Below, piece after piece: positions 4,286-60,907 of a DNA stretch of 64,000 bases. Both the position numbers and the translations under genes were made by a program. The stretch lies in the NCBI GenBank assembly GCA_024635455.1, contig JAGXIU010000003.1, positions 290,446-354,445 of the forward strand, written 5' to 3'. The notes under the pieces were generated by a model. The model saw only the letters and a program-made list of their open reading frames with translations. It did not search any database and was not told the origin of the DNA. Source of the DNA: Candidatus Saccharimonadota bacterium. Its GTDB lineage: Bacteria > Patescibacteriota > Saccharimonadia > Saccharimonadales > SLHW01. Within the stretch, counting starts at the first letter, position 1; each line of letters begins with the position of its first letter.

Positions 4286-5718
4286 GATAGAAGCTCCTCG
4301 ACAGAGTTTGCAAGCCGAAGTAAATCAATATCAGCGTGTTGTTTCGCCATCAGCTGTAAGCCAATAGGTAGCCCGTTATCAGAGCCAGATGGCAAGCTGA
4401 TTGCGGGGATGCCAGTCAAATTTGCAGCCACTGTCATTACATCCGTTAAGTACATTTCTAGTGGATCTTGCGTATGCTCACCTATCTTAAAAGCAGTCGA
4501 TGGTGCTGTTGGGCTAAGAATGGCATCGTATTTTTTAAATATATCTGCAAATTCACTTATAAGCTTCGTGCGGACTTGCTGTGCCTGACGATAATAAGCG
4601 TCATAATACCCGCTCGTCAACACATAAGTTCCTATCATTATTCGTCGTTTAGCTTCTTTACCAAGTCCTTTCGAACGGGACATTTTGTAACTATCCAGCA
4701 ACGATGTAGCGGAAGAATCACTATAACCGTATCGTTGCCCATCATAACGTGACAGGTTGCTGCTAATTTCAGCTGGCACAATAATGTAGTAACAAGCTAA
4801 CGCAAGTGACAATGAAGACACCGATACTTCCTCGACGATTGCACCTTTTTTCTTCAACTTCTCAACAACACTGTTTATGTTATCTCTGATACTGTCTGGT
4901 AGGGAGCTCGGCATAAGTTCTTTTATTATGGCTATTTTTTTGCCGGTTAGGTCAACGGCGTCCACCTCAGCATAGTCATGTTCGACTGGCTCTAACGTGG
5001 TGCTATCTCGACTATCTACACCGGCCATACAATCAAGTACTAGACCTGCGTCAGCAACTGATTGTGTGATTGGCCCAATCACATCTGTGCTACTAGCCAT
5101 AGCAATTACACCGCTCCGAGATACAAGTCCATAAGTTGGCTTATAACCGACCACTCCGCAGAATGCCGCCGGTAGTCGGATTGAGCCACCCGTATCAGTA
5201 CCAAGTGCAAAGGGTACGAGTGATAAAGCGACAGCTGCAGCTGACCCACCCGATGATCCACCAGGGACTCGCGTTGGGTCATGCGGATTTTTTGTGGTAA
5301 AAAAATCGCTGTTCTCAGTGCTTGATCCATGCGCGAACGCATCAAGATTCGCTTTTGCTACACATATAGCACCCTCTGCTTCTAGGCGCTCGATAGCGGT
5401 AGCTTGATATGGCGCCTTAAATCCTCGCAAAATATTGCTTGCAGCTGTTGTCTCGCTCCCAAGCGTTAAAAAATTATCTTTGGCTATAAACGGTACACCG
5501 GCTAACCTACCTGGGTTTTCGCCGCGCTTGACTGCTTCGTCGATTTGCTCTGCTCGTGCCAGCGCTCGCTCATCACATGACTGAATAACTATATTGTAAT
5601 CTGCCTGGTCTTCAATTCGTGCCAATGAGTCCTTGACTAAGGTAACCGCTGAGTCATCACCCGCTACTACGGCACGAGCAATCTCCGAAATCGGCTTCCA
5701 CTCTTTGTTTTGGCTCAT
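4282..5718 (-). CDS. gatA: Asp/Glu-tRNA amidotransferase subunit A
   Basis: Amidase signature GGSSGGSAAAVA; 478 aa. Confidence 0.95.
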   Translation of the reverse strand: MSQNKEWKPISEIARAVVAGDDSAVTLVKDSLARIEDQADYNIVIQSCDERALARAEQIDEAVKRGENPGRLAGVPFIAKDNFLTLGSETTAASNILRGFKAPYQATAIERLEAEGAICVAKANLDAFAHGSSTENSDFFTTKNPHDPTRVPGGSSGGSAAAVALSLVPFALGTDTGGSIRLPAAFCGVVGYKPTYGLVSRSGVIAMASSTDVIGPITQSVADAGLVLDCMAGVDSRDSTTLEPVEHDYAEVDAVDLTGKKIAIIKELMPSSLPDSIRDNINSVVEKLKKKGAIVEEVSVSSLSLALACYYIIVPAEISSNLSRYDGQRYGYSDSSATSLLDSYKMSRSKGLGKEAKRRIMIGTYVLTSGYYDAYYRQAQQVRTKLISEFADIFKKYDAILSPTAPSTAFKIGEHTQDPLEMYLTDVMTVAANLTGIPAISLPSGSDNGLPIGLQLMAKQHADIDLLRLANSVEELLS

Positions 5719-51147: not shown

Positions 51148-52254
51148 CTAGACCAATTGTTCCCACGGTAAGTCTAGCTTGCCAAAGTGGCCGTAGGCAG
51201 AGGTTGGCTGGTAAATTGGTCGACGCAAATCGAGCGTCTCGACAATCCCCTTCACCGATGTGTCGATGAGCTTGGCCGCAAAGGTATCAAGCTTAGACTG
51301 AGATACGGTTTCGGTGCCGAATGTTTCGATGGTTTGCATCAGCGGCTTTGGCTGGCCAATAACGTAGGCCAAGCCGACCTCACAACGCGAGGCTAGTTTT
51401 TGCGACACGATGTTTTTGGCAATATAGCGCGCTGCGTAAGCGCCGCTACGGTCGACCTTGCTCGGATCTTTACCGCTAAACGCTCCGCCGCCAACGCGAG
51501 CGTAGCCGCCGTAGGTATCGACCACAATCTTGCGGCCAGTCAATCCGGCATCAGAGTCTGGCCCTGGGATGTGCCAAACACCGGTACCGTTTATGATGAT
51601 GTTGTTTTTCTTTGGCACGGCTAGTCCAAAGCTTTCCAGCACCGGTGCAACGATGTGCTTGATGGCGTCAGCTCGAACTTCATCTGGCTCTGTCTCTTCG
51701 TGGTGGGCTACTGCCAATACCAGTTTTTCTACCGCTACCGGCTTATCGTCTTCGTAACGCACAGTCACCTGGGCCTTGCCGTCTGGCCGCAGCCACGCTA
51801 ACTTGTGCTCTTCCTGCTGCTGGTCAATGCGCCTGGTTAAGGCGTGCGCCAGACTGATTGGAAGTGGCATCAAGGCTTCAGTCTCGTCAACCGCGAAACC
51901 AAACATCATCCCCTGGTCACCTGCTCCGTCTTGATCAACGCCGACAGCGATTTCTGGCGACTGTTGGTGAACAAAGTTATGGAAGTTGGACTGGTCCGAA
52001 AAGCCCCAAGCTGGCTCGTCATAGCCGAGCGTTCGCACGGTGTCGCGTGCGATCGTCTCAAAATCCACAGTTGCGCGTGACTTGATTTCACCGAACAGGC
52101 TAATCTGATTGGCCCCAACCACCGCTTCGATACCGGTTCGGCTATAAGGGTCTTGAGCAATTGCGGCGTCAAGTAATGCATCGCTAATACGGTCGCAAAT
52201 TTTATCTGGGTGACCGCTACAAACGGATTCGCTGGTAAATAATCGTGTGGACAT
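51148..52254 (-). CDS. metK: S-adenosylmethionine synthetase
   Basis: GHPDKICD, GAGDQGMMFG and GGGAFSGKDPSKVDRS motifs. Confidence 0.95.
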   Translation of the reverse strand: MSTRLFTSESVCSGHPDKICDRISDALLDAAIAQDPYSRTGIEAVVGANQISLFGEIKSRATVDFETIARDTVRTLGYDEPAWGFSDQSNFHNFVHQQSPEIAVGVDQDGAGDQGMMFGFAVDETEALMPLPISLAHALTRRIDQQQEEHKLAWLRPDGKAQVTVRYEDDKPVAVEKLVLAVAHHEETEPDEVRADAIKHIVAPVLESFGLAVPKKNNIIINGTGVWHIPGPDSDAGLTGRKIVVDTYGGYARVGGGAFSGKDPSKVDRSGAYAARYIAKNIVSQKLASRCEVGLAYVIGQPKPLMQTIETFGTETVSQSKLDTFAAKLIDTSVKGIVETLDLRRPIYQPTSAYGHFGKLDLPWEQLV

Positions 52255-52473: not shown

Positions 52474-52630
52474 ATATCCTTTCTTGGCTTCTCAGCTTCA
52501 GAAAGGATATATCTCACGAGAAAATATCAATCCTGGGCTGTTTGTGCCAGGTCTAGTTGGAGCACCTTATCTTGATGATAGGTTGCTGGCGGATTAACGA
52601 GCTAGATCTCTCCCCGCGCTCTTTATATTC
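52474..52630 (-). promoter_or_regulatory. candidate SAM-I-clan riboswitch (aptamer ~52522-52630) plus SD-sequestering hairpin (52474-52510)
   Basis: The minus-strand RNA has several SAM-I-like elements. P1 is GAAUAU/AUAUUU. AUAAAGAG corresponds to the AUCAAGAG consensus. P2 is GCGG...CCGC with loop AGAUCUAG. P3 is GCAACC-hairpin-GGUGCU. J3/4 CUAGA is complementary to the P2 loop UCUAG (pseudoknot). P4 is CCUGG-N9-CCAGG. An 11-bp hairpin, AUAUCCUUUCU...AGAAAGGAUAU, covers the AAGGA SD 11 nt before the ATG. Confidence 0.5.
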
Positions 52631-52669
52631 TTAAATTGTTAACGTTTATACTGTAGCACGAACGCTGCG

Positions 52670-53113
52670 TTACGCCATAGACCTTACATGGCAAGCCCGA
52701 ATATCATCAAGGATTGTCTTCGTTTCCTCTTCATCAAGTCTGAGTACAGTAGGCTGGCCTTCCCTGTCCTCTAGCATTGCATATAGGTATCCGTCATTGG
52801 CTGCAATATAGTCGGTTGTATAAGGGTTCTCATTATTTGGGTTCTGCCGTTCTACTTGTAATGCTATTTCGGTTCGTGCCTCATTTGCGTATGTAGCCCT
52901 ATACGTGAAGTGGTATGTGTCGTATTGATCGAGCTTGCCTGCAACACAGTTCAAGTCATCGACTGGTTCAACAAAAAGTGGATTAAATGAAGCTAGCGGG
53001 TATTCCGCGCTTGTAATTAATGCGACTTCATTTACAGCTTGCAGTGTAATATTCAGCTCTTCATAAACTGTACTTGGAGCATGCCTTTCGGCATTTGTCG
53101 GTTCTCTTTCCAT
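52670..53113 (-). CDS. hypothetical protein
   Basis: ATG at 53113 preceded by GAGAGGAG; 147 aa; no recognisable motif. Confidence 0.6.
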   Translation of the reverse strand: MEREPTNAERHAPSTVYEELNITLQAVNEVALITSAEYPLASFNPLFVEPVDDLNCVAGKLDQYDTYHFTYRATYANEARTEIALQVERQNPNNENPYTTDYIAANDGYLYAMLEDREGQPTVLRLDEEETKTILDDIRACHVRSMA

Positions 53114-53243
53114 AATAACTCCTCTCAAAGTTCGTATAATTAGTACTATACTACCATGATTATGCCATTCTGTCGTGAGCTTTTTTATCAGAATGCCTAG
53201 ATAATATAACGCAGATTATGTATAATTCCCCCTGTCCAAACAT

Positions 53244-53317
53244 TGGGGATTAGCCAAGCGGTAAGGCAGCGGATTCTGGTTCCGCGATCGGGGGTTCGAA
53301 TCCCTCATCCCCAGCCA
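53244..53317 (+). tRNA. tRNA-Gln (anticodon CUG), CCA encoded
   Basis: Hand-folded: acceptor TGGGGAT/ATCCCCA, D arm GCC-AAGCGGTAA-GGC, anticodon arm GCGGA-TTCTGGT-TCCGC, T arm GGGGG-TTCGAAT-CCCTC, discriminator G, CCA. 74 nt. Confidence 0.9.
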
Positions 53318-53834
53318 TGAATGTGTTGATGAGCTTTTGCTCGTCGATACATTCATTGACACGGAGTGTTGGGTTTCGAACCCCCGTAGAATGAGCGCAA
53401 GCGAATGTGGGGTTCAGGGATTGAGCTTCACGCGCAGATGCTCGCATCGAGCATGAAGTGAAAAGCCACGATGTCATCCCTCATCCCCAGCCATGAAATG
53501 ACACCACCTTTGTGTGGTGTTTTTTCATGGCTCAAGTGGTTCGAACCCCCGTAGAATGAGCCGTAGCGAATGTGGGGTTCGGTGGAGCGAAGTCACGCGC
53601 AGAAGCTCGCTTCGAGTAAGCTTGAGCGGAAGAGACGAAGGCGATATCCCTCATCCCCAGCCATGAAAGAGAGTCACCTTGCGTGGCTCTTTTTCATGGC
53701 TATGAGTTGGGTTCGGTTCTCCGATCAGCGAACGAATGTGAGCAAGATCGGGGATTCGGGCATCAAGCTCGCGCGCAAGAGTTTACTCTGAGCACGAGTG
53801 CAGCATGCACTATGTCATCCCTCATCACCAGCGA
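53317..53834 (+). repeat. tRNA-proximal hairpin plus three tandem ~170-nt units (U1 53361-53530, U2 53531-53702, U3 53703-53834), each ending in a copy of the tRNA 3' end
   Basis: ATCCCTCATCCCCAGCCATGAA is identical at 53302 (the tRNA itself), 53476 and 53646; a degenerate form (ATCCCTCATCACCAGCGA) lies at 53817. In the tRNA, U1 and U2 the CCA is embedded in a long hairpin (CCATGAA...TTCATGG), followed by a T-run only in U1 and U2; U3's degenerate end has no hairpin. Confidence 0.85.
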
Positions 53835-54302
53835 GTGAATATGTACGTAGATTTTTTAATATGATTCTTGGATGTCAAGAAATGAAGACAGTCCCCTACT
53901 CTCAGCATCCCTTGAAACTTTTCCAAAGTAAGATTCGGTTGAGGCAGCTCAAGACACAAGTGACTCTACTGCTTATTAAAGAGCAGAAATTAGCTCTCTT
54001 GCTGAAGCTCCTGGCATCACACCACCTAGCGATGATTTGCTCGAAGATCACTTAGGACGAGTTGGTGCCAGAAAACTTCTAAACGAAAACCCGATTAGAG
54101 GCGGCAGATACTATTGGTTGCTGTAAGCCTTGGATTGTTATACTTCATTCCTTGATTTCCTTAAATAAACTTTTGTTATTTTTTACTTAAATAAAAGTTT
54201 TATTCTCGAATACTAGCTCCACCGTTGACTGACTAGAAATATTTTTATGCTCATGCTAAAGTAAATTTATGGATACTAAATCATATGTGAGGTGCACTTT
54301 AT

Positions 54303-56132
54303 ATGGTAAATATACGTCAACACTTGGCACAGACACTCCGTGCCGGATCTAGTTATGTCAAAAAACATCAAACCGTCGCTTTCTCAGAGTTATTCGCGCT
54401 AGCTGCCCTCCTCGTCCTTGGTTTGTCTTTTGCTTCATCTTCCACCAAGACGCTGACCTACCAAGGCAGTTTACATCACAAGGCTCCAGTTGAGACCTAT
54501 AACATCCGCTCAGCTGAAGGCGCATTTACTGCAGAACTCACATTTGCCGAGGACAAAAAAAATAATGCCGTCAATACTATGACTTTGGCCTTGCATGACG
54601 ATCAGGGTACACAGCTTGCCTTCAGTGAAAGTGGCAGTCCGGTTGCTATTTTTAACGAAGTTAACAAAGGTGAATACCGGATTACCGTTTCTACCAACGA
54701 CAGCTTTAAGGGCAATTCAGATTACACTCTCAAGGTTACTGTGCCAGCTTCAGACACAGTAGCCCCTTCAGTCAGTATAGATTCTCCCGGCAATGACGCT
54801 ACTGTCAGCGACACCATCTCAATCATCGTCACCGCCAGTGACGATGTAGCTGTAGACAGGGTAATTATACAAATAGATAACGGGGCAATACATACCTTGG
54901 ATAATACGGAGTCTTGGGAGTATAGCCTCGACACCACTACCCTCAACGACGGTGCTCACACAGCACTTGTCACCGCCTATGATACTTCTGAAAACGTAAC
55001 AAGTACTTCAGTTAGTTTTACGGTGGAAAACAGTACTCATAATGATGGTGTAAACACAGATGATAGCGAGAACACAACAGTTAGCGACTATTTATGGATT
55101 TCCCCGAGCACAATTGCTGATTTGCCAACAAGCGGTGATGCGTGGCAGGAAATTGTTGATGACGCAAATCGTCTGCCAGCAGACGGAGGCGGTGCTAGTG
55201 TTGGTGATCAGAACTCTAGGCACGACCAATATACGCTAGCTGCTGCACTTGCTTGTGTCCGTACCAACGAGACAAGCTATTGTGATAAAGCAACTGGTGG
55301 TTTACTCGATGCTATTGGCACAGAAACTGACGACAGAGGCCGTTGGCTGGCTGTTGGTCGCAATGTTGGTGCATATACGATTGCTGCAGATATCATGGAT
55401 CTTCGTGCTGACGGGGATCCCAACTCAGACGGGTCACAAATTGAAGCATGGTTATCTAATCTTCTAGAGCGAACTCTCGCAGATAACAACGACCCTGATG
55501 TACAGGAAAAACTTATACCGTTTGAGTCTGGCTCAAATGCGTCCGCACAAGAAGGGTTTGTTTACATAGCTATTGCAGCATATCTAGATGATCAGACTAA
55601 ACTTGATATAGGCTGGGATGCTTTCCGTACTTACGCTTGCGACCCTACTGCACCCGACAACGAGGATATCGATTTAGCCAAGGGTGTCGAGTATGGCTGG
55701 GCTCATGATGGCAGTAGCCCGTGTGCAATAAATCCACTGAATACTACCAAGGAAAGCGTGAGAATTGACGGTGCTATTATCAACGACATGCGTCGAGGCG
55801 GATACTTCACGGATCCCCCAGGCTATACCCAATACCCTTGGGTTGGTTTGGAGGGATTTGTACCAGCAGCTGTCGTACTTCAACGATCTGGATACCCAGC
55901 CTTTGACGTGGCGGATCAGGCAGTGCTAAGAACATTCCAGTATCTCGATTACCTTAAAGACAGAACTGGCGATACCAGGTGGTTCGATGGTAATCGAGCT
56001 GCAGAGACAATTCAGATTGTTAATACGGCATACGGTGAAAATTTCCTAATTTCCGTATCGGGTATTGGCGACGGAAGAACATTCGGATATACAGACTGGA
56101 CTCATACAGCCCAGTCAACGATTTACCCCTAA
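54303..56132 (+). CDS. secreted/membrane-anchored protein with bacterial Ig-like domain and uncharacterised C-terminal domain
   Basis: GAGGTG SD and an N-terminal TM. Ig-like segment: VAPSVSIDSPGNDATVSDTISIIVTASDDVAVDRVIIQIDNG...VSFTVEN. The ~340-aa C-terminal region has no motif I can name. Confidence 0.75.
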   Translation: MVNIRQHLAQTLRAGSSYVKKHQTVAFSELFALAALLVLGLSFASSSTKTLTYQGSLHHKAPVETYNIRSAEGAFTAELTFAEDKKNNAVNTMTLALHDDQGTQLAFSESGSPVAIFNEVNKGEYRITVSTNDSFKGNSDYTLKVTVPASDTVAPSVSIDSPGNDATVSDTISIIVTASDDVAVDRVIIQIDNGAIHTLDNTESWEYSLDTTTLNDGAHTALVTAYDTSENVTSTSVSFTVENSTHNDGVNTDDSENTTVSDYLWISPSTIADLPTSGDAWQEIVDDANRLPADGGGASVGDQNSRHDQYTLAAALACVRTNETSYCDKATGGLLDAIGTETDDRGRWLAVGRNVGAYTIAADIMDLRADGDPNSDGSQIEAWLSNLLERTLADNNDPDVQEKLIPFESGSNASAQEGFVYIAIAAYLDDQTKLDIGWDAFRTYACDPTAPDNEDIDLAKGVEYGWAHDGSSPCAINPLNTTKESVRIDGAIINDMRRGGYFTDPPGYTQYPWVGLEGFVPAAVVLQRSGYPAFDVADQAVLRTFQYLDYLKDRTGDTRWFDGNRAAETIQIVNTAYGENFLISVSGIGDGRTFGYTDWTHTAQSTIYP

Positions 56133-56520
56133 TCGTATAGTCCTAGGCCACTACGATCGATAACCGAAATCAACGGCGGATGACATGTTGCGTTTATCTG
56201 ACGAAGGGGTATGGTTTTTAGCACCGGGAGCTTAAAGCAGCACTTAAATCACAAGCCGACGTATATTGAAACCTTTATTAACTAATGCTTGTCACTTCCG
56301 ATTAGATGCATGTAATACTAGCGATACTAATTTTCCGTAATCGATCGCGTAAAGATTTTATCCCGCTTGCCCCGTAGCCAGTCTCGTCATCAAATCCGAC
56401 CAAAGCTTTACCCACGAGTTCAACAAGAACGGCACCTACTCCTGCCGAGACTTATTCAATCTCTAAACCAGCGATTCAGTTGTAGTAGCTGAGCAGGAGC
56501 AGAACACCCCTCCTACAGCG

Positions 56521-57117
56521 TTAGGGTAATCTTCCGAGGAAAAGAGCCCGAAGGCTAATGCTGATCCATATGAATGATATGAAAGTGAAGCAGAGAAAGG
56601 TCAGCGCCGAAAGAAGAATGCGTACCATGTCGGTACTATAGATAATTCCTGTTATTGATATTTCTGTCAACGGTACGGCTAAGTAGGCTAGCCCGGCAAT
56701 TACACCTAGGATTATGCTCGCAGCTAGAAGGTGAAAAATGGCGTGAAGCGCAATACTACCCCAAAATGACAGCTGATTAAAATTTTTAGGGTGCTGGTAC
56801 CGAAATGCTATGTTGAAGTCTCTCACTACCTCATCCGATCCTCGCTTTATGTAAAGCGCGACAGAAAATACAACTACTCCTAATAGATACCATAAAATGT
56901 ATTGGACAACATTTTCAATTGCAGGCAGCTGGCTTAGTCCAGATAGCCAAGAGTTGATTGTCTCACCAACAAATACTCGTGTTTCATATGTTATTGACGG
57001 ATCCGTAGTTTTGAGGTGGGTATAGATTAAGCTGCCCCCAAGTATAAGAATGGAAAGAAACCCGTATAGTAGTGATTCTAACTTAGATGGCAGTATCCAC
57101 GCTAGGTGTTTCTTCAT
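56521..57117 (-). CDS. polytopic membrane protein, hypothetical
   Basis: 198 aa with about 5 hydrophobic helices. Confidence 0.6.
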   Translation of the reverse strand: MKKHLAWILPSKLESLLYGFLSILILGGSLIYTHLKTTDPSITYETRVFVGETINSWLSGLSQLPAIENVVQYILWYLLGVVVFSVALYIKRGSDEVVRDFNIAFRYQHPKNFNQLSFWGSIALHAIFHLLAASIILGVIAGLAYLAVPLTEISITGIIYSTDMVRILLSALTFLCFTFISFIWISISLRALFLGRLP

Positions 57118-57436
57118 TAAGTTTATTTTAACGTAAAAATTGCAAACATCGTAGTTCTTGTGCTTTTAGCTAGTTGTGTTAAGCGATTAAAACTTATCAT
57201 CGAAGATGGTCTGGCAGGCAGACGCAGACTTTACATAGGTCATTCTGAAAATTAGGCCTCAGGATGAAGGAGTTTGCCGCTGTATGACATATACCAGCAC
57301 AATCATATAGAACTTTAATCTGGTCTTTGCTCGCAAAACCCCTCTTTTTTCTCTAAGCAATAATCGATAGCCTTTGTGCATTTGTGCGCCATCCCTAACA
57401 CCTTTTATCTGAATCTGTTTGCGACTTGATCCAAAC

Positions 57437-57721
57437 TTAGTCGATTTGCTTAACGTAAACACGTAGGCCTCCTTTCTTAGTTCTTTCAAAATGAATATCT
57501 GTCTTGGGGTCGGTAAGCATAGACTCATAATGGACAAGTGCGTTAACACCTATGTCAGCAAACATAGGGCTTGCACTGGCTACATCTGCCTCAGGTTCTT
57601 CAACTTGCTGATTTTCACTGTCATCAAAATCAGCTCGTAGGTACATATCATTCTTCTGATAAACGGTATATCGAGGACGTCGGTTGTAGCGAACACCAAC
57701 AACAATCCACTCGATAATCAA
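57437..57721 (-). CDS. hypothetical protein (possibly disrupted)
   Basis: 94-aa ORF. A second ORF in another frame (57259-57549) overlaps its 3' end, which is compatible with a frameshifted gene. Confidence 0.35.
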   Translation of the reverse strand: MIIEWIVVGVRYNRRPRYTVYQKNDMYLRADFDDSENQQVEEPEADVASASPMFADIGVNALVHYESMLTDPKTDIHFERTKKGGLRVYVKQID

Positions 57722-57785
57722 CCGACCCTTGATACGAATTGCCAGGGTTAAAAATATAGCTGATATTACGCCAACAATGATTACC

Positions 57786-57971
57786 TTTTCATGGCTATGA
57801 GTTGGGTTCGGTTCTCCGATCAGCGAACGAATGTGAGCAAGATCGGGGGGGGTTCGGGCATCAAGCTCGAGCGCAAGAGTTTACTCTGAGCACGAGCGCA
57901 GCATGCACTATGTCATCCCTCATCCCCAGCCATGAAAGAGAGTCACGCAAAGGTGACTCTCTTTCATGGCT
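57786..57971 (+). repeat. unit U4 of the tRNA-3'-end repeat family, with a perfect 19-bp terminal hairpin
   Basis: Well over 90% identical to U3 by eye (a few substitutions and one small indel) from TTTTCATGGCTATGAG onward. ATCCCTCATCCCCAGCCA at 57915-57932. Hairpin AGCCATGAAAGAGAGTCAC-gcaaag-GTGACTCTCTTTCATGGCT at 57928-57971. Confidence 0.85.
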
Positions 57972-58018
57972 GCATGTATTTCGAATCTCTTACATCCATG
58001 CGCGAACGGCTAGACTCC

Positions 58019-59788
58019 CTAGTTCCCTATCCGGGTGCCGCCTTGTATGTTAGCCCCGCCGTCTATGTACGTGTTGCCGCTCGCCGGTGCTGCCGCTGTG
58101 GTGAAGCTGAAGATACTTGAAACAGTGCTTTCGGTGTTGCTTCCACCTGGATCAATGGCGTAGGCACGCCACCAGTACTGGGTAGAGTATTCGAGTAATG
58201 GCTCTTGGTACTGGTGTGAGGCAAGCGTAGAGCCGCCCAGTGTGGTACTAGTGACATATGCACTCCCGGTTAAGGCATCCTGACCGCTCCACCCAGTTTG
58301 ACTGAGTGTTTGGTCGATAGTACGAAGAACGCTTAAACAAGAGTTGTCTTCACAAAGCTCAATACGATAGCGGACAGCATTCGACTCCGAGTCAGTTGTA
58401 CGGAGCTGCAGAGTTGGCTGCAGGCTCACGTCAATTGCTGTGTCTGCAGGGGTACTGAGAGTTGGTGCGGCTGGTGGCTGGTTAACCGGCGGTGGGTCTA
58501 CAGTAGTAAAGCTATAGATACTAGAAATGCTACCTTCGGTGTTGCTGCCGCCTGGGTCAATAGCATACGCACGCCACCAATATTGGGTACTTTCACTAAG
58601 TGCTGGGTCTTGGTAAGTATGGCTAGCTAGGGTTGAGTTAGCCAGAGTGCCACTACCAACGTATGCCGTACCAGACTCGGCATCTTGCCCGCTCCAGCCC
58701 ACCTGGCTCGTAGATTGGTCGATAGTGCGCACTATAACCGAACAGTCGCTAACCGAACACACCTCAATACGGTAGCGCAAGTAGTCATTTTCAGCGTCGG
58801 AGGAGCGCAACTGGAAAGTGGGCGTCACAATCACGTCAGTTGCTGTGTCTGCAGGGGTACTGAGAGTTGGGGCAGACGGCGGCTGGTTGGCTACTGGGAC
58901 TGGATTAATTGCAAGTATTTGCCCAGCATTAGTCGTGTTGGTGCCAGTTGCCGTCCGTGTGCCGGTACCCCCAGCAGTAGGCCAAGGCTCTTGAGCAATA
59001 CGGACAGCATTACGTGCACTGTCTTGGCCAGCGCCAGAAGCTATAAAGCCCACGCTAATCATGCTGGCTGGCTCAGCAATATTATTGCCGCTATCATGTC
59101 CAAAAAATCCAACTAGCATTGTATTATCCCGATTTGGAGAAATTGAAGGGGCGACAATATTTATCCCAGTGTTCTTCTGTTTACCAAAAACATTTATAGG
59201 ACTCGCTGTATCTATACCACTGTAGGTCGCGGCAACAGCAATTGCCTTTCGGCTATCAACCTCAAAACCAGTCTGAGTAAAATAATTAAAATCAAATGTA
59301 TAACTAGTCGGATCTCCTGACTGAATGACACGACTATATATTATCTGTTCACTGCAAGGGGCCGAAGTTAAGCCTGCCGAGTTACCACACGACAATTCAG
59401 TACTCATTACTTCAGTCAACAAGTTGCTACTAACAGTACCTGTACTCGTACCCTCTTTTGAGCTTACAACTATCAATAATAGATCACCTGCTACTGCCTC
59501 GGTGGGCACATTTATTATGATAGAACTGGCGTTGTTCACAGAAGCAGTCGTGGCCGTACCGCGCTGCTGAATTTGCGCGCTGATATTAGTCGGTGAAATA
59601 ATAAATACAGTAGCCAGGCTAAATATTACTACAATCAAAAGCAAGATAATTTTCGCTGCATATTTACTCAAGTCCGGCCACACGCCAGAAAGCCTACTCT
59701 GAGCGAATTCGCCTAATGAATCTGAACACGCAGCTACATCTATATCGTATGTATAATTTTTACTACTGTAACGAGATAGTGAGCGCAT
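58019..59788 (-). CDS. secreted/membrane-anchored protein with two tandem ~135-aa FN3/Ig-like repeats
   Basis: N-terminal TM (IILLLIVVIFSLATVFII). Internal duplication (NQPP[SA]APTLSTPADTA.DV...YWWRAYAIDPGGSNTE...FSFTT) at ~58085-58485 and ~58497-58890. Confidence 0.75.
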   Translation of the reverse strand: MRSLSRYSSKNYTYDIDVAACSDSLGEFAQSRLSGVWPDLSKYAAKIILLLIVVIFSLATVFIISPTNISAQIQQRGTATTASVNNASSIIINVPTEAVAGDLLLIVVSSKEGTSTGTVSSNLLTEVMSTELSCGNSAGLTSAPCSEQIIYSRVIQSGDPTSYTFDFNYFTQTGFEVDSRKAIAVAATYSGIDTASPINVFGKQKNTGINIVAPSISPNRDNTMLVGFFGHDSGNNIAEPASMISVGFIASGAGQDSARNAVRIAQEPWPTAGGTGTRTATGTNTTNAGQILAINPVPVANQPPSAPTLSTPADTATDVIVTPTFQLRSSDAENDYLRYRIEVCSVSDCSVIVRTIDQSTSQVGWSGQDAESGTAYVGSGTLANSTLASHTYQDPALSESTQYWWRAYAIDPGGSNTEGSISSIYSFTTVDPPPVNQPPAAPTLSTPADTAIDVSLQPTLQLRTTDSESNAVRYRIELCEDNSCLSVLRTIDQTLSQTGWSGQDALTGSAYVTSTTLGGSTLASHQYQEPLLEYSTQYWWRAYAIDPGGSNTESTVSSIFSFTTAAAPASGNTYIDGGANIQGGTRIGN

Positions 59789-60371
59789 GCTTTTTTTGGT
59801 GGATCCGTTATGTGACTAATGCTTTATATTGTACCCTAGCACAACCGTACAATAAACTTTTTTACGTACAGGCACTGCCCAGGGTGCGCAAGCACTCCCA
59901 CCAAAGTGGAATTACTAATCTATATAAGTCAGTTAACGGTGTAGATTCGAAATATATGCTTATGTAGCTACACTTATCAACCAGATGTGTATTCATGTAT
60001 ACTCATCCCGCCCACTCCGACGTAACGCCACCCAATTAAAAATGCTTGATATTTCAAGTGTAGTGTAGAAACTGTCTATTTAGTGCGCTCATGAACTTGT
60101 ACATCTAGGAATACTCGTAGTCTCATTGTACGATTTTCTTGTTGCTACCCTTCGGCAGCTCGAGCTCCTAGCCCTGAACTAGACACAGTTAGCATATTGT
60201 GTATGATCCGATTATGGCGTGCCGTATATGTGATGTGATAGTGACACCTCATGAGGCTATTAGAGAAAATTTAGCAAGACCTACCTATCAGGAGGCCTGT
60301 TAATACTCCTAATCTAATAACCGTGGCCTCTTTTGTAGTATCAAGACCAAGAAATCTTCATGAAACTGACC

Positions 60372-60562
60372 CACTAGCCACAGACAAAGAAAGTCCAGGC
60401 ATCAAAGCCGGGTTTTTCTTTGGCTCGAGTGCCTCGAACCCCCGATGCGTCCGTCATATATGACGGACAAGCATTCGGCGGGTTCGGGCATCAAGCTCGC
60501 GCGCAAGAGTTTACTCTGAGCACGAGTGCAGCATGCACTATGTCATCCCTCACCCCCAGCCA
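60372..60562 (+). repeat. unit U5 of the tRNA-3'-end repeat family, preceded by a degenerate junction and hairpin
   Basis: CCCACTAGCCA, then hairpin CAAAGAAAGTCCAGGC-atcaaa-GCCGGGTTTTTCTTTG. The following 60-nt core GGGCATCAAGCTCGCGCGCAAGAGTTTACTCTGAGCACGAGTGCAGCATGCACTATGTC is identical to U3. Ends in ATCCCTCACCCCCAGCCA (60545-60562). Confidence 0.8.
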
Positions 60563-60907
60563 AGACGGACATTTAAATAGACCTATCTAGGTCTATATTT
60601 ATATAATCATGCCGTGAAATATGCATTGAACGAAAGTAATACAATCTGTTAAAAATCTTGACGTATTACACTTTTTGAAGCCATCGCTTTATCAACCAGT
60701 ACTAATATGTTTAATAAACATCTTGGTTCGTTTTACTCTCAAACTCTTGCATAAGTTATCTTGTGTCGTAGCGCACTGACAGCACACAGTAGTTTGCCCT
60801 ATTGTTGTATTAGCAAGCAACTTATGGCTCGCTAGGCACGGGAGTGGCAATGTTGAGGAAGTAAGTTAGGTATTGCTCTACTATATTAATTAATAGAAAG
60901 GTTTCTT

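Follow-up and report, generated by a model that had tools for sequence, protein, structure and literature searches.

In the genome of a Candidatus Saccharimonadota bacterium (assembly GCA_024635455.1), the tail of a glutamine tRNA gene, CCA end included, recurs several times behind the gene itself, which raises the question of how these copies arose and whether they have a function. Saccharibacteria have tiny genomes, and gene gain and loss in this group are little understood. We analyzed a stretch of 64,000 nucleotides (nt) from contig JAGXIU010000003.1 (positions 290,446 to 354,445), hereafter termed the window, and compared its tRNA-Gln locus with those of relatives. The region 53244-60562 is probably best read as an array that grew by accretion behind tRNA-Gln(CTG), whose 3' end is a site that would serve as an integration hot spot throughout the lineage and behind which cis-mobilizable cassettes with attachment (att) repeats, together with relics of such cassettes, would have accumulated.

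Tail copies, units and cargo islands behind tRNA-Gln

The tRNA-Gln(CTG) gene, the sole tRNA found in the window by ARAGORN, occupies positions 53244-53317 on the plus strand, encodes its CCA and scores 60.8 bits with Rfam. A search with its last 18 nt (R0, 53300-53317) returned exact copies at 53476-53493 (R1), 53646-53663 (R2) and 57915-57932 (R4), a final copy with one mismatch at 60545-60562 (R5, ATCCCTCACCCCCAGCCA) and a degenerate version at 53817-53834 (R3*, ATCCCTCATCACCAGCGA), all on the plus strand. The identity extends over 23 nt, ATCCCTCATCCCCAGCCATGAA(A/T), at the starts 53300, 53476 and 53646, with the 78% version at 53817, and the first four copies are spaced 176, 170 and 171 nt from start to start. 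These six matches with at most three mismatches compare with 0.02 expected (0/100 shuffles), and they run downstream in tRNA orientation, i.e., as the direct repeats of an att-repeat island array. An earlier note on this DNA had described tail repeats behind tRNA-Gln on the same strand at a spacing of about 170 nt, an observation that is borne out here, while of the six copies it had seen four and overlooked R4 and R5. Tandem Repeats Finder reported no tandem repeat at the units, because these are too diverged.

From the tRNA onwards, the array reads tRNA, H0-U1-R, H1-U2-R, H2-U3-R*, island A, U4-R, hairpin, island B, hairpin-U5-R and terminal hairpin, where H stands for a hairpin, U for a unit with its body and R for a tail copy. 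All units lie on the plus strand. The U1 body (53357-53475) contains an antisense copy of the T-arm (53371-53386), a G-rich segment complementary to R (53408-53422) and a small hairpin (53438-53454), the U2 body (53533-53645) an antisense T-arm copy at 53535-53551 and U1-related blocks of 92-93% identity, and the U3 body (53702-53816) an antisense copy at 53705-53726 and a sense piece, GATCGGGGATTCG, at 53746-53758. By sequence comparison, U4 (57787-57914) consists of the right arm of an H2-like hairpin and a near-identical copy of the U3 body, and in U5 (60387-60544) a hairpin precedes a body whose 5' half is new and whose 3' half is identical to that of U3. The U5 body spans 60424-60544, with the U3-identical half starting at about 60480 and with an antisense T-arm copy and the hairpin GTCCGTCAT..ATGACGGAC in the new half.

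When units from relatives are included, the hairpin is followed in 24 of 41 units by a significant match, in antisense, to the 3' third of the tRNA (consensus GGGATTCGAACCCCCGATC), and according to the fragment map this antisense copy is succeeded by a short sense piece (GATCGGGGGTTC), an insert and the sense tail R. The insert sits after the TTC of the T loop in the window units and after the T-stem 5' strand in the type A units of relatives described below. Type C units and units of 65 nt carry the complement 5-10 nt from R, which results in a compact dyad. Units are also mosaic in that H1 and its antisense segment recur in L062 before another body and U5 matches U3 in its 3' half only. The heptamer GCGAAGC, a stem of G-C and C-G with a GAA triloop, was spotted by eye in several body types (L005, L007, L033, L058, L014, L061 and L042, as well as L106 at ~578-586).

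Two cargo islands lie within the array. Island A (53835-57786, ~4.0 kb of cargo) encodes a 609-amino-acid (aa) Big_7 protein (54303-56132) and contains open reading frames (ORFs) of 198 and 96 aa, and island B (57973-60386, ~2.5 kb) contains an ORF of 589 aa on the minus strand (58019-59788). The ORFs of both islands are lineage-specific, neither Pfam nor PHROGs yielded a function for the 198-aa and 589-aa ORFs, and no recognisable recombinase gene is present in island A or B. R3* falls precisely on the left junction of island A, and copies of the U3 body, whole before R4 and reduced to the 3' half before R5, bracket the 4.0-kb and 2.5-kb cargo. As these further tail copies are accompanied by U3-body copies around the islands, the array extends over 53244-60562, or about 7 kb. 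The right end of island B, CACTAGCCACAGACA (60372-60386), is a worn form of the cargo-island ends in the related loci L037 and L042, in which CACTAG is directly followed by CCCCAGCCA.

Each of the first three tail copies leads into a long hairpin that starts in its CCA, as the earlier note had claimed together with G.U pairs that are found as stated. H0 (53317-53356, arms 53317-53334 and 53339-53356) begins in the CCA of the tRNA, contains three G.U pairs and lacks a U-tract, H1 (53489-53532, arms 53489-53507 and 53514-53532) matches an intrinsic terminator with its inner stem and T-run, and H2 (53659-53701, arms 53659-53677 and 53683-53701) contains two G.U pairs and has a perfectly paired version behind R4 that ends near 57972. 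R5 is followed by a hairpin at 60577-60596. Folding z-scores of H0, H1 and H2 amount to -8.0, -5.8 and -8.2. A T-run said to follow the hairpins is present, but it lies inside the 3' arm (TTTTTTCATGG) and not beyond the full stem; in H2 it is partly within the stem. Among the three hairpins the terminator scan passed H1 alone and gave no match for H0. Across units, including those of relatives, the plus strand of the hairpin behind R folds better in 23 of 31 cases (p = 6e-4), in contrast to the bodies, for which the count is 13 of 31 and thus without strand bias. Plus-strand-favoured G.U pairing applies to the hairpins after the CCA, which is the pattern that intrinsic terminators would show. 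On this evidence, the hairpins act as regular plus-strand terminators with which each cassette supplies the tRNA.

A sigma-70-like promoter, TAGATA-17-TATAAT, was predicted for the tRNA at 53198-53226 by a promoter scan. No other promoter-like site on the plus strand is close to the tRNA or to the first three units, as the second match on this strand is further upstream (53088-53116), and the scan revealed no such site on the plus strand inside the units. Just past U3, a minus-strand promoter-like sequence, TTGACA-16-AAAAAT (53878->53851), points towards the units from behind, although it is no more than a match to the consensus, with 4 sites found vs. 2.4 expected.

The tRNA-Gln locus in relatives

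Units of the window recur on a single related metagenome contig, L106, which was recovered in a scan for a 24-mer specific to U3. Window and L106 have the same tRNA sequence, and their upstream flanks are ~71% identical (BLAST, 77% over 326 nt including the tRNA), while the H2-U3 cassette shares 93-95% and the U1-type body 91% identity with the window. The array of L106 starts with a 55-nt island remnant ending in CAGCCA and continues with the H2-U3 cassette and then with H0 and the U1-type body behind the R of that cassette. Further on lie a worn R and an island of 5.2 kb, then part of a U1/U2-type body whose R is intact, and finally a U5-like unit. H0 is located behind the tRNA in the window and behind a unit in L106. 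With units at 91-95% vs. a flank at ~71% and with a permuted order, hairpin, body and R constitute discrete cassettes that are better conserved than the surrounding chromosome and have been reordered. The 5.2-kb island encodes an S51 peptidase, an archaeal-type S-adenosylmethionine (AdoMet) synthetase, a GT1 glycosyltransferase and an inositol monophosphatase and lacks a recombinase. Its AdoMet synthetase gene (PF01941, 2686-3943, minus strand) falls into two overlapping ORFs, whereas the metK gene beside the tRNA of the window is of the bacterial type. The comparison with relatives for differently filled sites that the earlier note had proposed thus found one, with permuted units and other cargo.

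A genome-collection scan with the repeat yielded 104 loci, nearly all of them from Saccharibacteria and a few from Peribacteria and Gracilibacteria, for each of which up to 8 kb of DNA was examined. At least two R copies downstream of tRNA-Gln, in the layout tRNA, hairpin, body, tRNA 3' end, are present in 35 of these loci, with spacings that fall into classes of 65 nt (Nanosyncoccus), 120-210 nt and 0.8-5 kb. The remaining 69 loci carry a single R copy within the DNA examined and represent unoccupied sites. The long intervals contain single accessory genes for Fic (twice), glyoxalase, a GT2 glycosyltransferase, an Imm5-like protein, a PLD-like protein and a P-type ATPase. Cargo is diverse across 10 other loci, and the DNA between repeats, including islands A and B and that of L106, is accessory and variable. 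In Nanosyncoccus, two or three near-identical mini-units of 65 nt follow one another (L071, at 5348-5497, as well as L060, L008, L024 and L078), each with the tail of the tRNA, a short hairpin that begins in the CCA and a pairing of GGGATTCG with CGAATCCC.

Some of the loci carry a recombinase at the site itself. The interval of L089 encodes a large serine recombinase of 516 aa, homologues of which immediately follow tRNA-Gln in L050, L098 and L048, where they are encoded on the opposite strand and end at the CCA, and in L011 a large serine recombinase is located ~1.1 kb downstream of tRNA-Gln, likewise on the opposite strand. All five proteins consist of Resolvase, Recombinase and Zn ribbon domains, and in L050, L098, L048 and L089 the reading frame reaches up to or into the CCA end of the tRNA. 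At least five loci of relatives thus carry a recombinase at the site. For 144 ORFs downstream of the tRNA in relatives, the tyrosine-integrase (Phage_integrase) family is absent from the Pfam summary, which lists the 25 most frequent families. A viral-contig scan was negative with the L050 serine recombinase as well as with the repeat as query, and a search of phage DNA matched tRNA-Gln genes only.

At the right ends of cargo islands from different genomes, two conserved motifs abut a CCAGCCA remnant of 6-9 nt. The first, CACTAG next to CC(CC)AGCCA, occurs in L037 and L042 and, in worn form, in the window (60372-60386), the second, TGTATGCT next to CAGCCA, in L035, L046 and L106 (425-443). The existence of two such end motifs suggests at least two island families, for both of which the crossover would fall on the extreme 3' end of the tRNA.

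For the recombination step and the role of the bodies we infer the following course. A mobile segment would carry its own copy of the tRNA from T-stem to CCA (R), followed by a hairpin. Upon recombination with a resident R, the incoming R and hairpin would become the new 3' end and terminator of the tRNA, and the displaced resident R would remain at the far end, such that repetition would build a ladder of R copies. Deletion, duplication and reshuffling among the R, hairpin and body repeats could then leave gene-less cassettes of ~170 nt (hairpin, body and R). U1, U2 and U3 would be such cis-mobilizable cassettes or relics of them, and U4 and U5 modules of the same type at the right-hand ends of the two cargo islands. 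Recombination may be exerted by a large serine recombinase acting in trans or proceed as homologous exchange through R and body. The bodies themselves would not be RNA genes but would form the arm of the attachment region on the side of the element.

Several points weigh against this reading. No recombinase gene was found in the array of the window or in L106, and the rest of the window was checked for recombinases via a Pfam summary of the 25 top families only, by which a tyrosine recombinase elsewhere may be missed. Recombinase and cargo islands with visible right ends share just 7-9 nt (CC(C)AGCCA) with the tRNA as compared to 18-28 nt in the units. Furthermore, att arms do not as a rule have the combined antisense and sense tRNA architecture seen in the bodies. 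Four of the six R copies are exact although the bodies diverge, which selection on an RNA 3' end could also explain. Finally, the small hairpin differs between window and L106 by a compensatory change from CTTCA/TGAAG to CCTCA/TGAGG, for which a G.U pair is the intermediate, and by a C-to-U change that results in a G.U pair. Two or three substitutions leave this hairpin intact, with one change counted as compensatory and two as preserving G.U pairing; they hint at a plus-strand structure and are suggestive but thin.

Less likely readings: functional RNAs, local duplication or folded DNA

The last two points are those to be expected if the units were expressed and functional tRNA-like or minihelix RNAs, an explanation that we consider unlikely for the window. 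Read-through from the tRNA promoter past H0, which is no terminator match, would produce a tRNA-U1 precursor ending at H1, which is one, and processing would release a structured RNA whose 3' end equals the acceptor strand of tRNA-Gln plus GCCA and that may act as a decoy or substrate for tRNA-3'-end enzymes. In U1, the 15-nt segment 53408-53422 is 87% complementary to R and would leave a GCCA overhang upon pairing, and each R precedes a hairpin for which the plus strand is favoured. On the other hand, in U2 and U3 an upstream complement pairs only weakly with R, the bodies fold like shuffled sequences (z = -1.3, +0.5 and -1.7), and seven window-type bodies gave a consensus structure of just -4.4 kcal/mol with 9 pairs. 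One change between U3 and U4 in a predicted stem is uncompensated. Rfam matched only the tRNA and a riboswitch between 52500 and 54800 at E <= 10, with nothing in the units, and only tRNAs in nine related loci. The units are devoid of a promoter, and the position of degenerate R copies exactly at island junctions is what att sites would show. Serial integration, one half of what the earlier note had suggested for the tail fragments, is upheld by the extension of the array to 60562, its islands, the cargo genes and recombinases at this site in relatives and the reshuffled L106; transcribed and functional units, the other half, are not, given that fold, consensus structure, strand bias, promoter and Rfam match are all missing from the bodies. 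An RNA role of the window bodies is not supported.

A further argument for structured RNAs comes from another type of body. Type A, first found in L003, L025, L026, L062 and L074, comprises a module of ~95 nt with three hairpins, closed by a helix to R. In these five sequences 97.8% of the cells are paired vs. ~45% with slid partners, 16 of 37 pairs change on both sides, and plus-strand G.U pairs are many and A.C pairs few. A covariance model, R1, gathered 15 copies with 91% of cells paired and 26 of 37 pairs changing on both sides, figures that lean towards the structure because the alignment was fitted to the model. The closing helix of 7 base pairs hardly varies, and Rfam holds no match. 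The module always has the orientation of the tRNA and, in downstream as well as upstream copies, sits in tRNA-Gln fragments at the position of the D loop or T loop. Downstream copies end in the tRNA CCA tail and a terminator (L026, 3130-3274, minus strand; L025, 4223-4369; L003, 3412-3556, minus strand; L074, 1352-1499; L062, 4980-5127, minus strand; L035, 751-900; L094, 2299-2445, minus strand). Copies upstream of the real tRNA-Gln (L059, 3187-3325; L012, 2169-2263; L030, 5881-6021; L046, 7382-7610, minus strand; L082, 1747-1851, minus strand) are fused, behind a tRNA-type promoter, to the first 16-52 nt of tRNA-Gln at the D-loop or T-loop position.

It is conceivable, if doubtful, that the cassettes carry small structured RNAs which rely on tRNA-Gln to be expressed and processed. 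Were this the case, U1 to U5 would be diverged kin of type A and part of a tRNA-scaffolded, horizontally exchanged set of RNA genes in an episymbiont with a reduced genome. Model R1 does not match any of U1 to U5 and within the array detects the tRNA itself only (53211-53317, 15.4 bits), for which reason the type A result cannot be transferred to the window units. The type A module is a candidate for a new RNA or a recombination structure and as such more novel than the array of the window.

Local tandem duplication of one tRNA-tail unit by slippage or unequal crossing-over, followed by divergence and by unrelated later insertion of the islands, appears improbable. U1 and U2 are clearly paralogous, the near-identical 65-nt units of L071 and L060 resemble recent slippage, and the shared stretches (23-35 nt for R and hairpin arm, more than 100 nt for bodies) suffice for homologous exchange. 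However, duplication accounts neither for the origin of the first tail copy nor for the fact that in many genomes cargo genes and serine recombinases fit precisely into the intervals from one R to the next, and it leaves unexplained the conserved island-end motifs abutting CCAGCCA as well as units of 91-95% identity in permuted order between genomes whose flanks share ~71%.

It is very improbable that the bodies are single-stranded DNA attachment sites folded as in integron attC or CTX phage attP, in which the antisense and sense pieces would pair into a duplex of the tRNA 3' third with the insert bulging at the crossover and a host recombinase would insert the cassettes. This idea would fit the antisense copy before the sense copy in the majority of units, the compact dyads, the recurring triloop hairpins, body structure that overall has no RNA-like strand bias, and one-gene or gene-less cassettes that mostly lack integrases and are reordered between relatives, but there is neither an integron-type integrase nor another candidate enzyme beside the tRNA, a GTTRRRY-type core is absent, the spacer from arm to arm ranges from 5 to ~100 nt, and all recombinases observed belong to the large serine type, for which double-stranded DNA is the substrate.

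Further candidates were rejected. A minus-strand tRNA-like gene or transfer-messenger RNA (tmRNA)-like gene in the units was discarded as ARAGORN and Rfam were empty on that strand, and the plus-strand G.U pairs of the type A helices, which would be A.C on the minus strand, likewise count against a gene in this direction. ToxI-like antitoxin repeats, IS200/IS605 elements with TnpB guide RNAs, IS110 bridge RNAs, group I introns and primer-binding sites of the long-terminal-repeat type were considered and set aside for want of an associated protein, a fitting size or an Rfam match.

The chromosome upstream of tRNA-Gln encodes a 152-aa ORF, to which neither Pfam nor PHROGs assigned a function and which recovered no relative as a metagenome scan query, followed by an ordinary SAM riboswitch (52521-52631, minus strand, 48.9 bits and thus above the gathering score) that precedes a 69-aa ORF and metK (51148-52254). 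An exact-protein look-up with MetK retrieved L001, one 4.3-kb Logan contig (SRR13628066) that is identical to the window and stops inside the repeat at 53315, and it is therefore uninformative about the array; an end in the tail repeat is as expected where repeats break short-read assembly graphs. Pfam matches to Amidase and GatB_N among the upstream housekeeping ORFs (723-48536) indicate a GatA-like protein and GatB, with which Gln-tRNA(Gln) is probably made by transamidation. This would bear on the array only if the tail copies were RNA decoys.

Relation to known integration systems

An accretion array of this kind suggests that the 3' end of tRNA-Gln is a docking site shared across Saccharibacteria, at which individual accessory genes (for Fic, immunity-like, glycosyltransferase and surface proteins) as well as mini-cassettes without genes are piled up and reshuffled, mostly in the absence of a resident recombinase. 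The array can be used as a marker of strain-variable DNA and is a source of assembly breaks, and its tails should not be annotated as tRNA or RNA genes.

Fragments of tRNA genes are well documented as footprints of integration (PMC9897764), and in the part of this source that cites Reiter 1989 and Williams 2002, integrative elements are described to leave a partial copy of the tRNA 3' end at their far end and to restore the 3' end of the tRNA. As in the T-loop sublocation attributed there to Williams, the identity block in the loci studied here often starts in the T loop ((T)CGAATCCC...). Classic tRNA att fragments differ in that there is typically one fragment per element of 10-50 kb and a tyrosine integrase beside the tRNA, whereas up to six fragments are found here in 7 kb, with a shortest interval of 170 nt.

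The ssrA islands of Dehalococcoides have a CcrB-like serine integrase at attL and 20-bp direct repeats of the 3' end of the gene; they are arranged in tandem, and some are without integration modules and have been read as cis-mobilizable (McMurdie et al., 2011, PMC3146451). With these and with the composite islands of the staphylococcal cassette chromosome (SCC), the arrays at tRNA-Gln have in common the 3' end of a tRNA-like gene as attachment site, downstream repeats of ~18-20 bp in the same orientation, tandem stacking, islands without an integration module and, in the relatives L050, L098, L048 and L089, a CcrB-like large serine recombinase on the reverse strand beside attL. They differ from them in the target, tRNA-Gln in Saccharibacteria, in a window without recombinase, in many gene-less cassettes of 65-210 nt that each bear a terminator hairpin and an antisense/sense tRNA body, and in the unequal lengths shared with the tRNA, 7-9 nt for islands with visible right ends and 18-28 nt for mini-cassettes.

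Integron cassette arrays resemble the present ones by short one-gene or gene-less cassettes at one primary site, an imperfectly palindromic end module and a shuffled order. In contrast to integrons, intI is not present beside the site, attC core motifs were not seen in the units, the primary site is the 3' end of a tRNA gene, and the repeats reproduce this end with identical sequence. Intrinsic (rho-independent) terminators are matched by the GC-containing stems after each CCA, the better folding of the plus strand and the T-runs in H1 and H2, but the stems described here reach back into the CCA (AGCCATGAA/TTCATGGCT) and H0 has no U-tract. In summary, the closest known systems are arrays of serine-recombinase islands at ssrA or orfX and classic tRNA att fragments, and what is new is the target and the lineage, the abundance of gene-less cassettes of 65-210 nt with their own terminators, the tRNA-derived bodies and the shuffling of cassettes without a resident recombinase.

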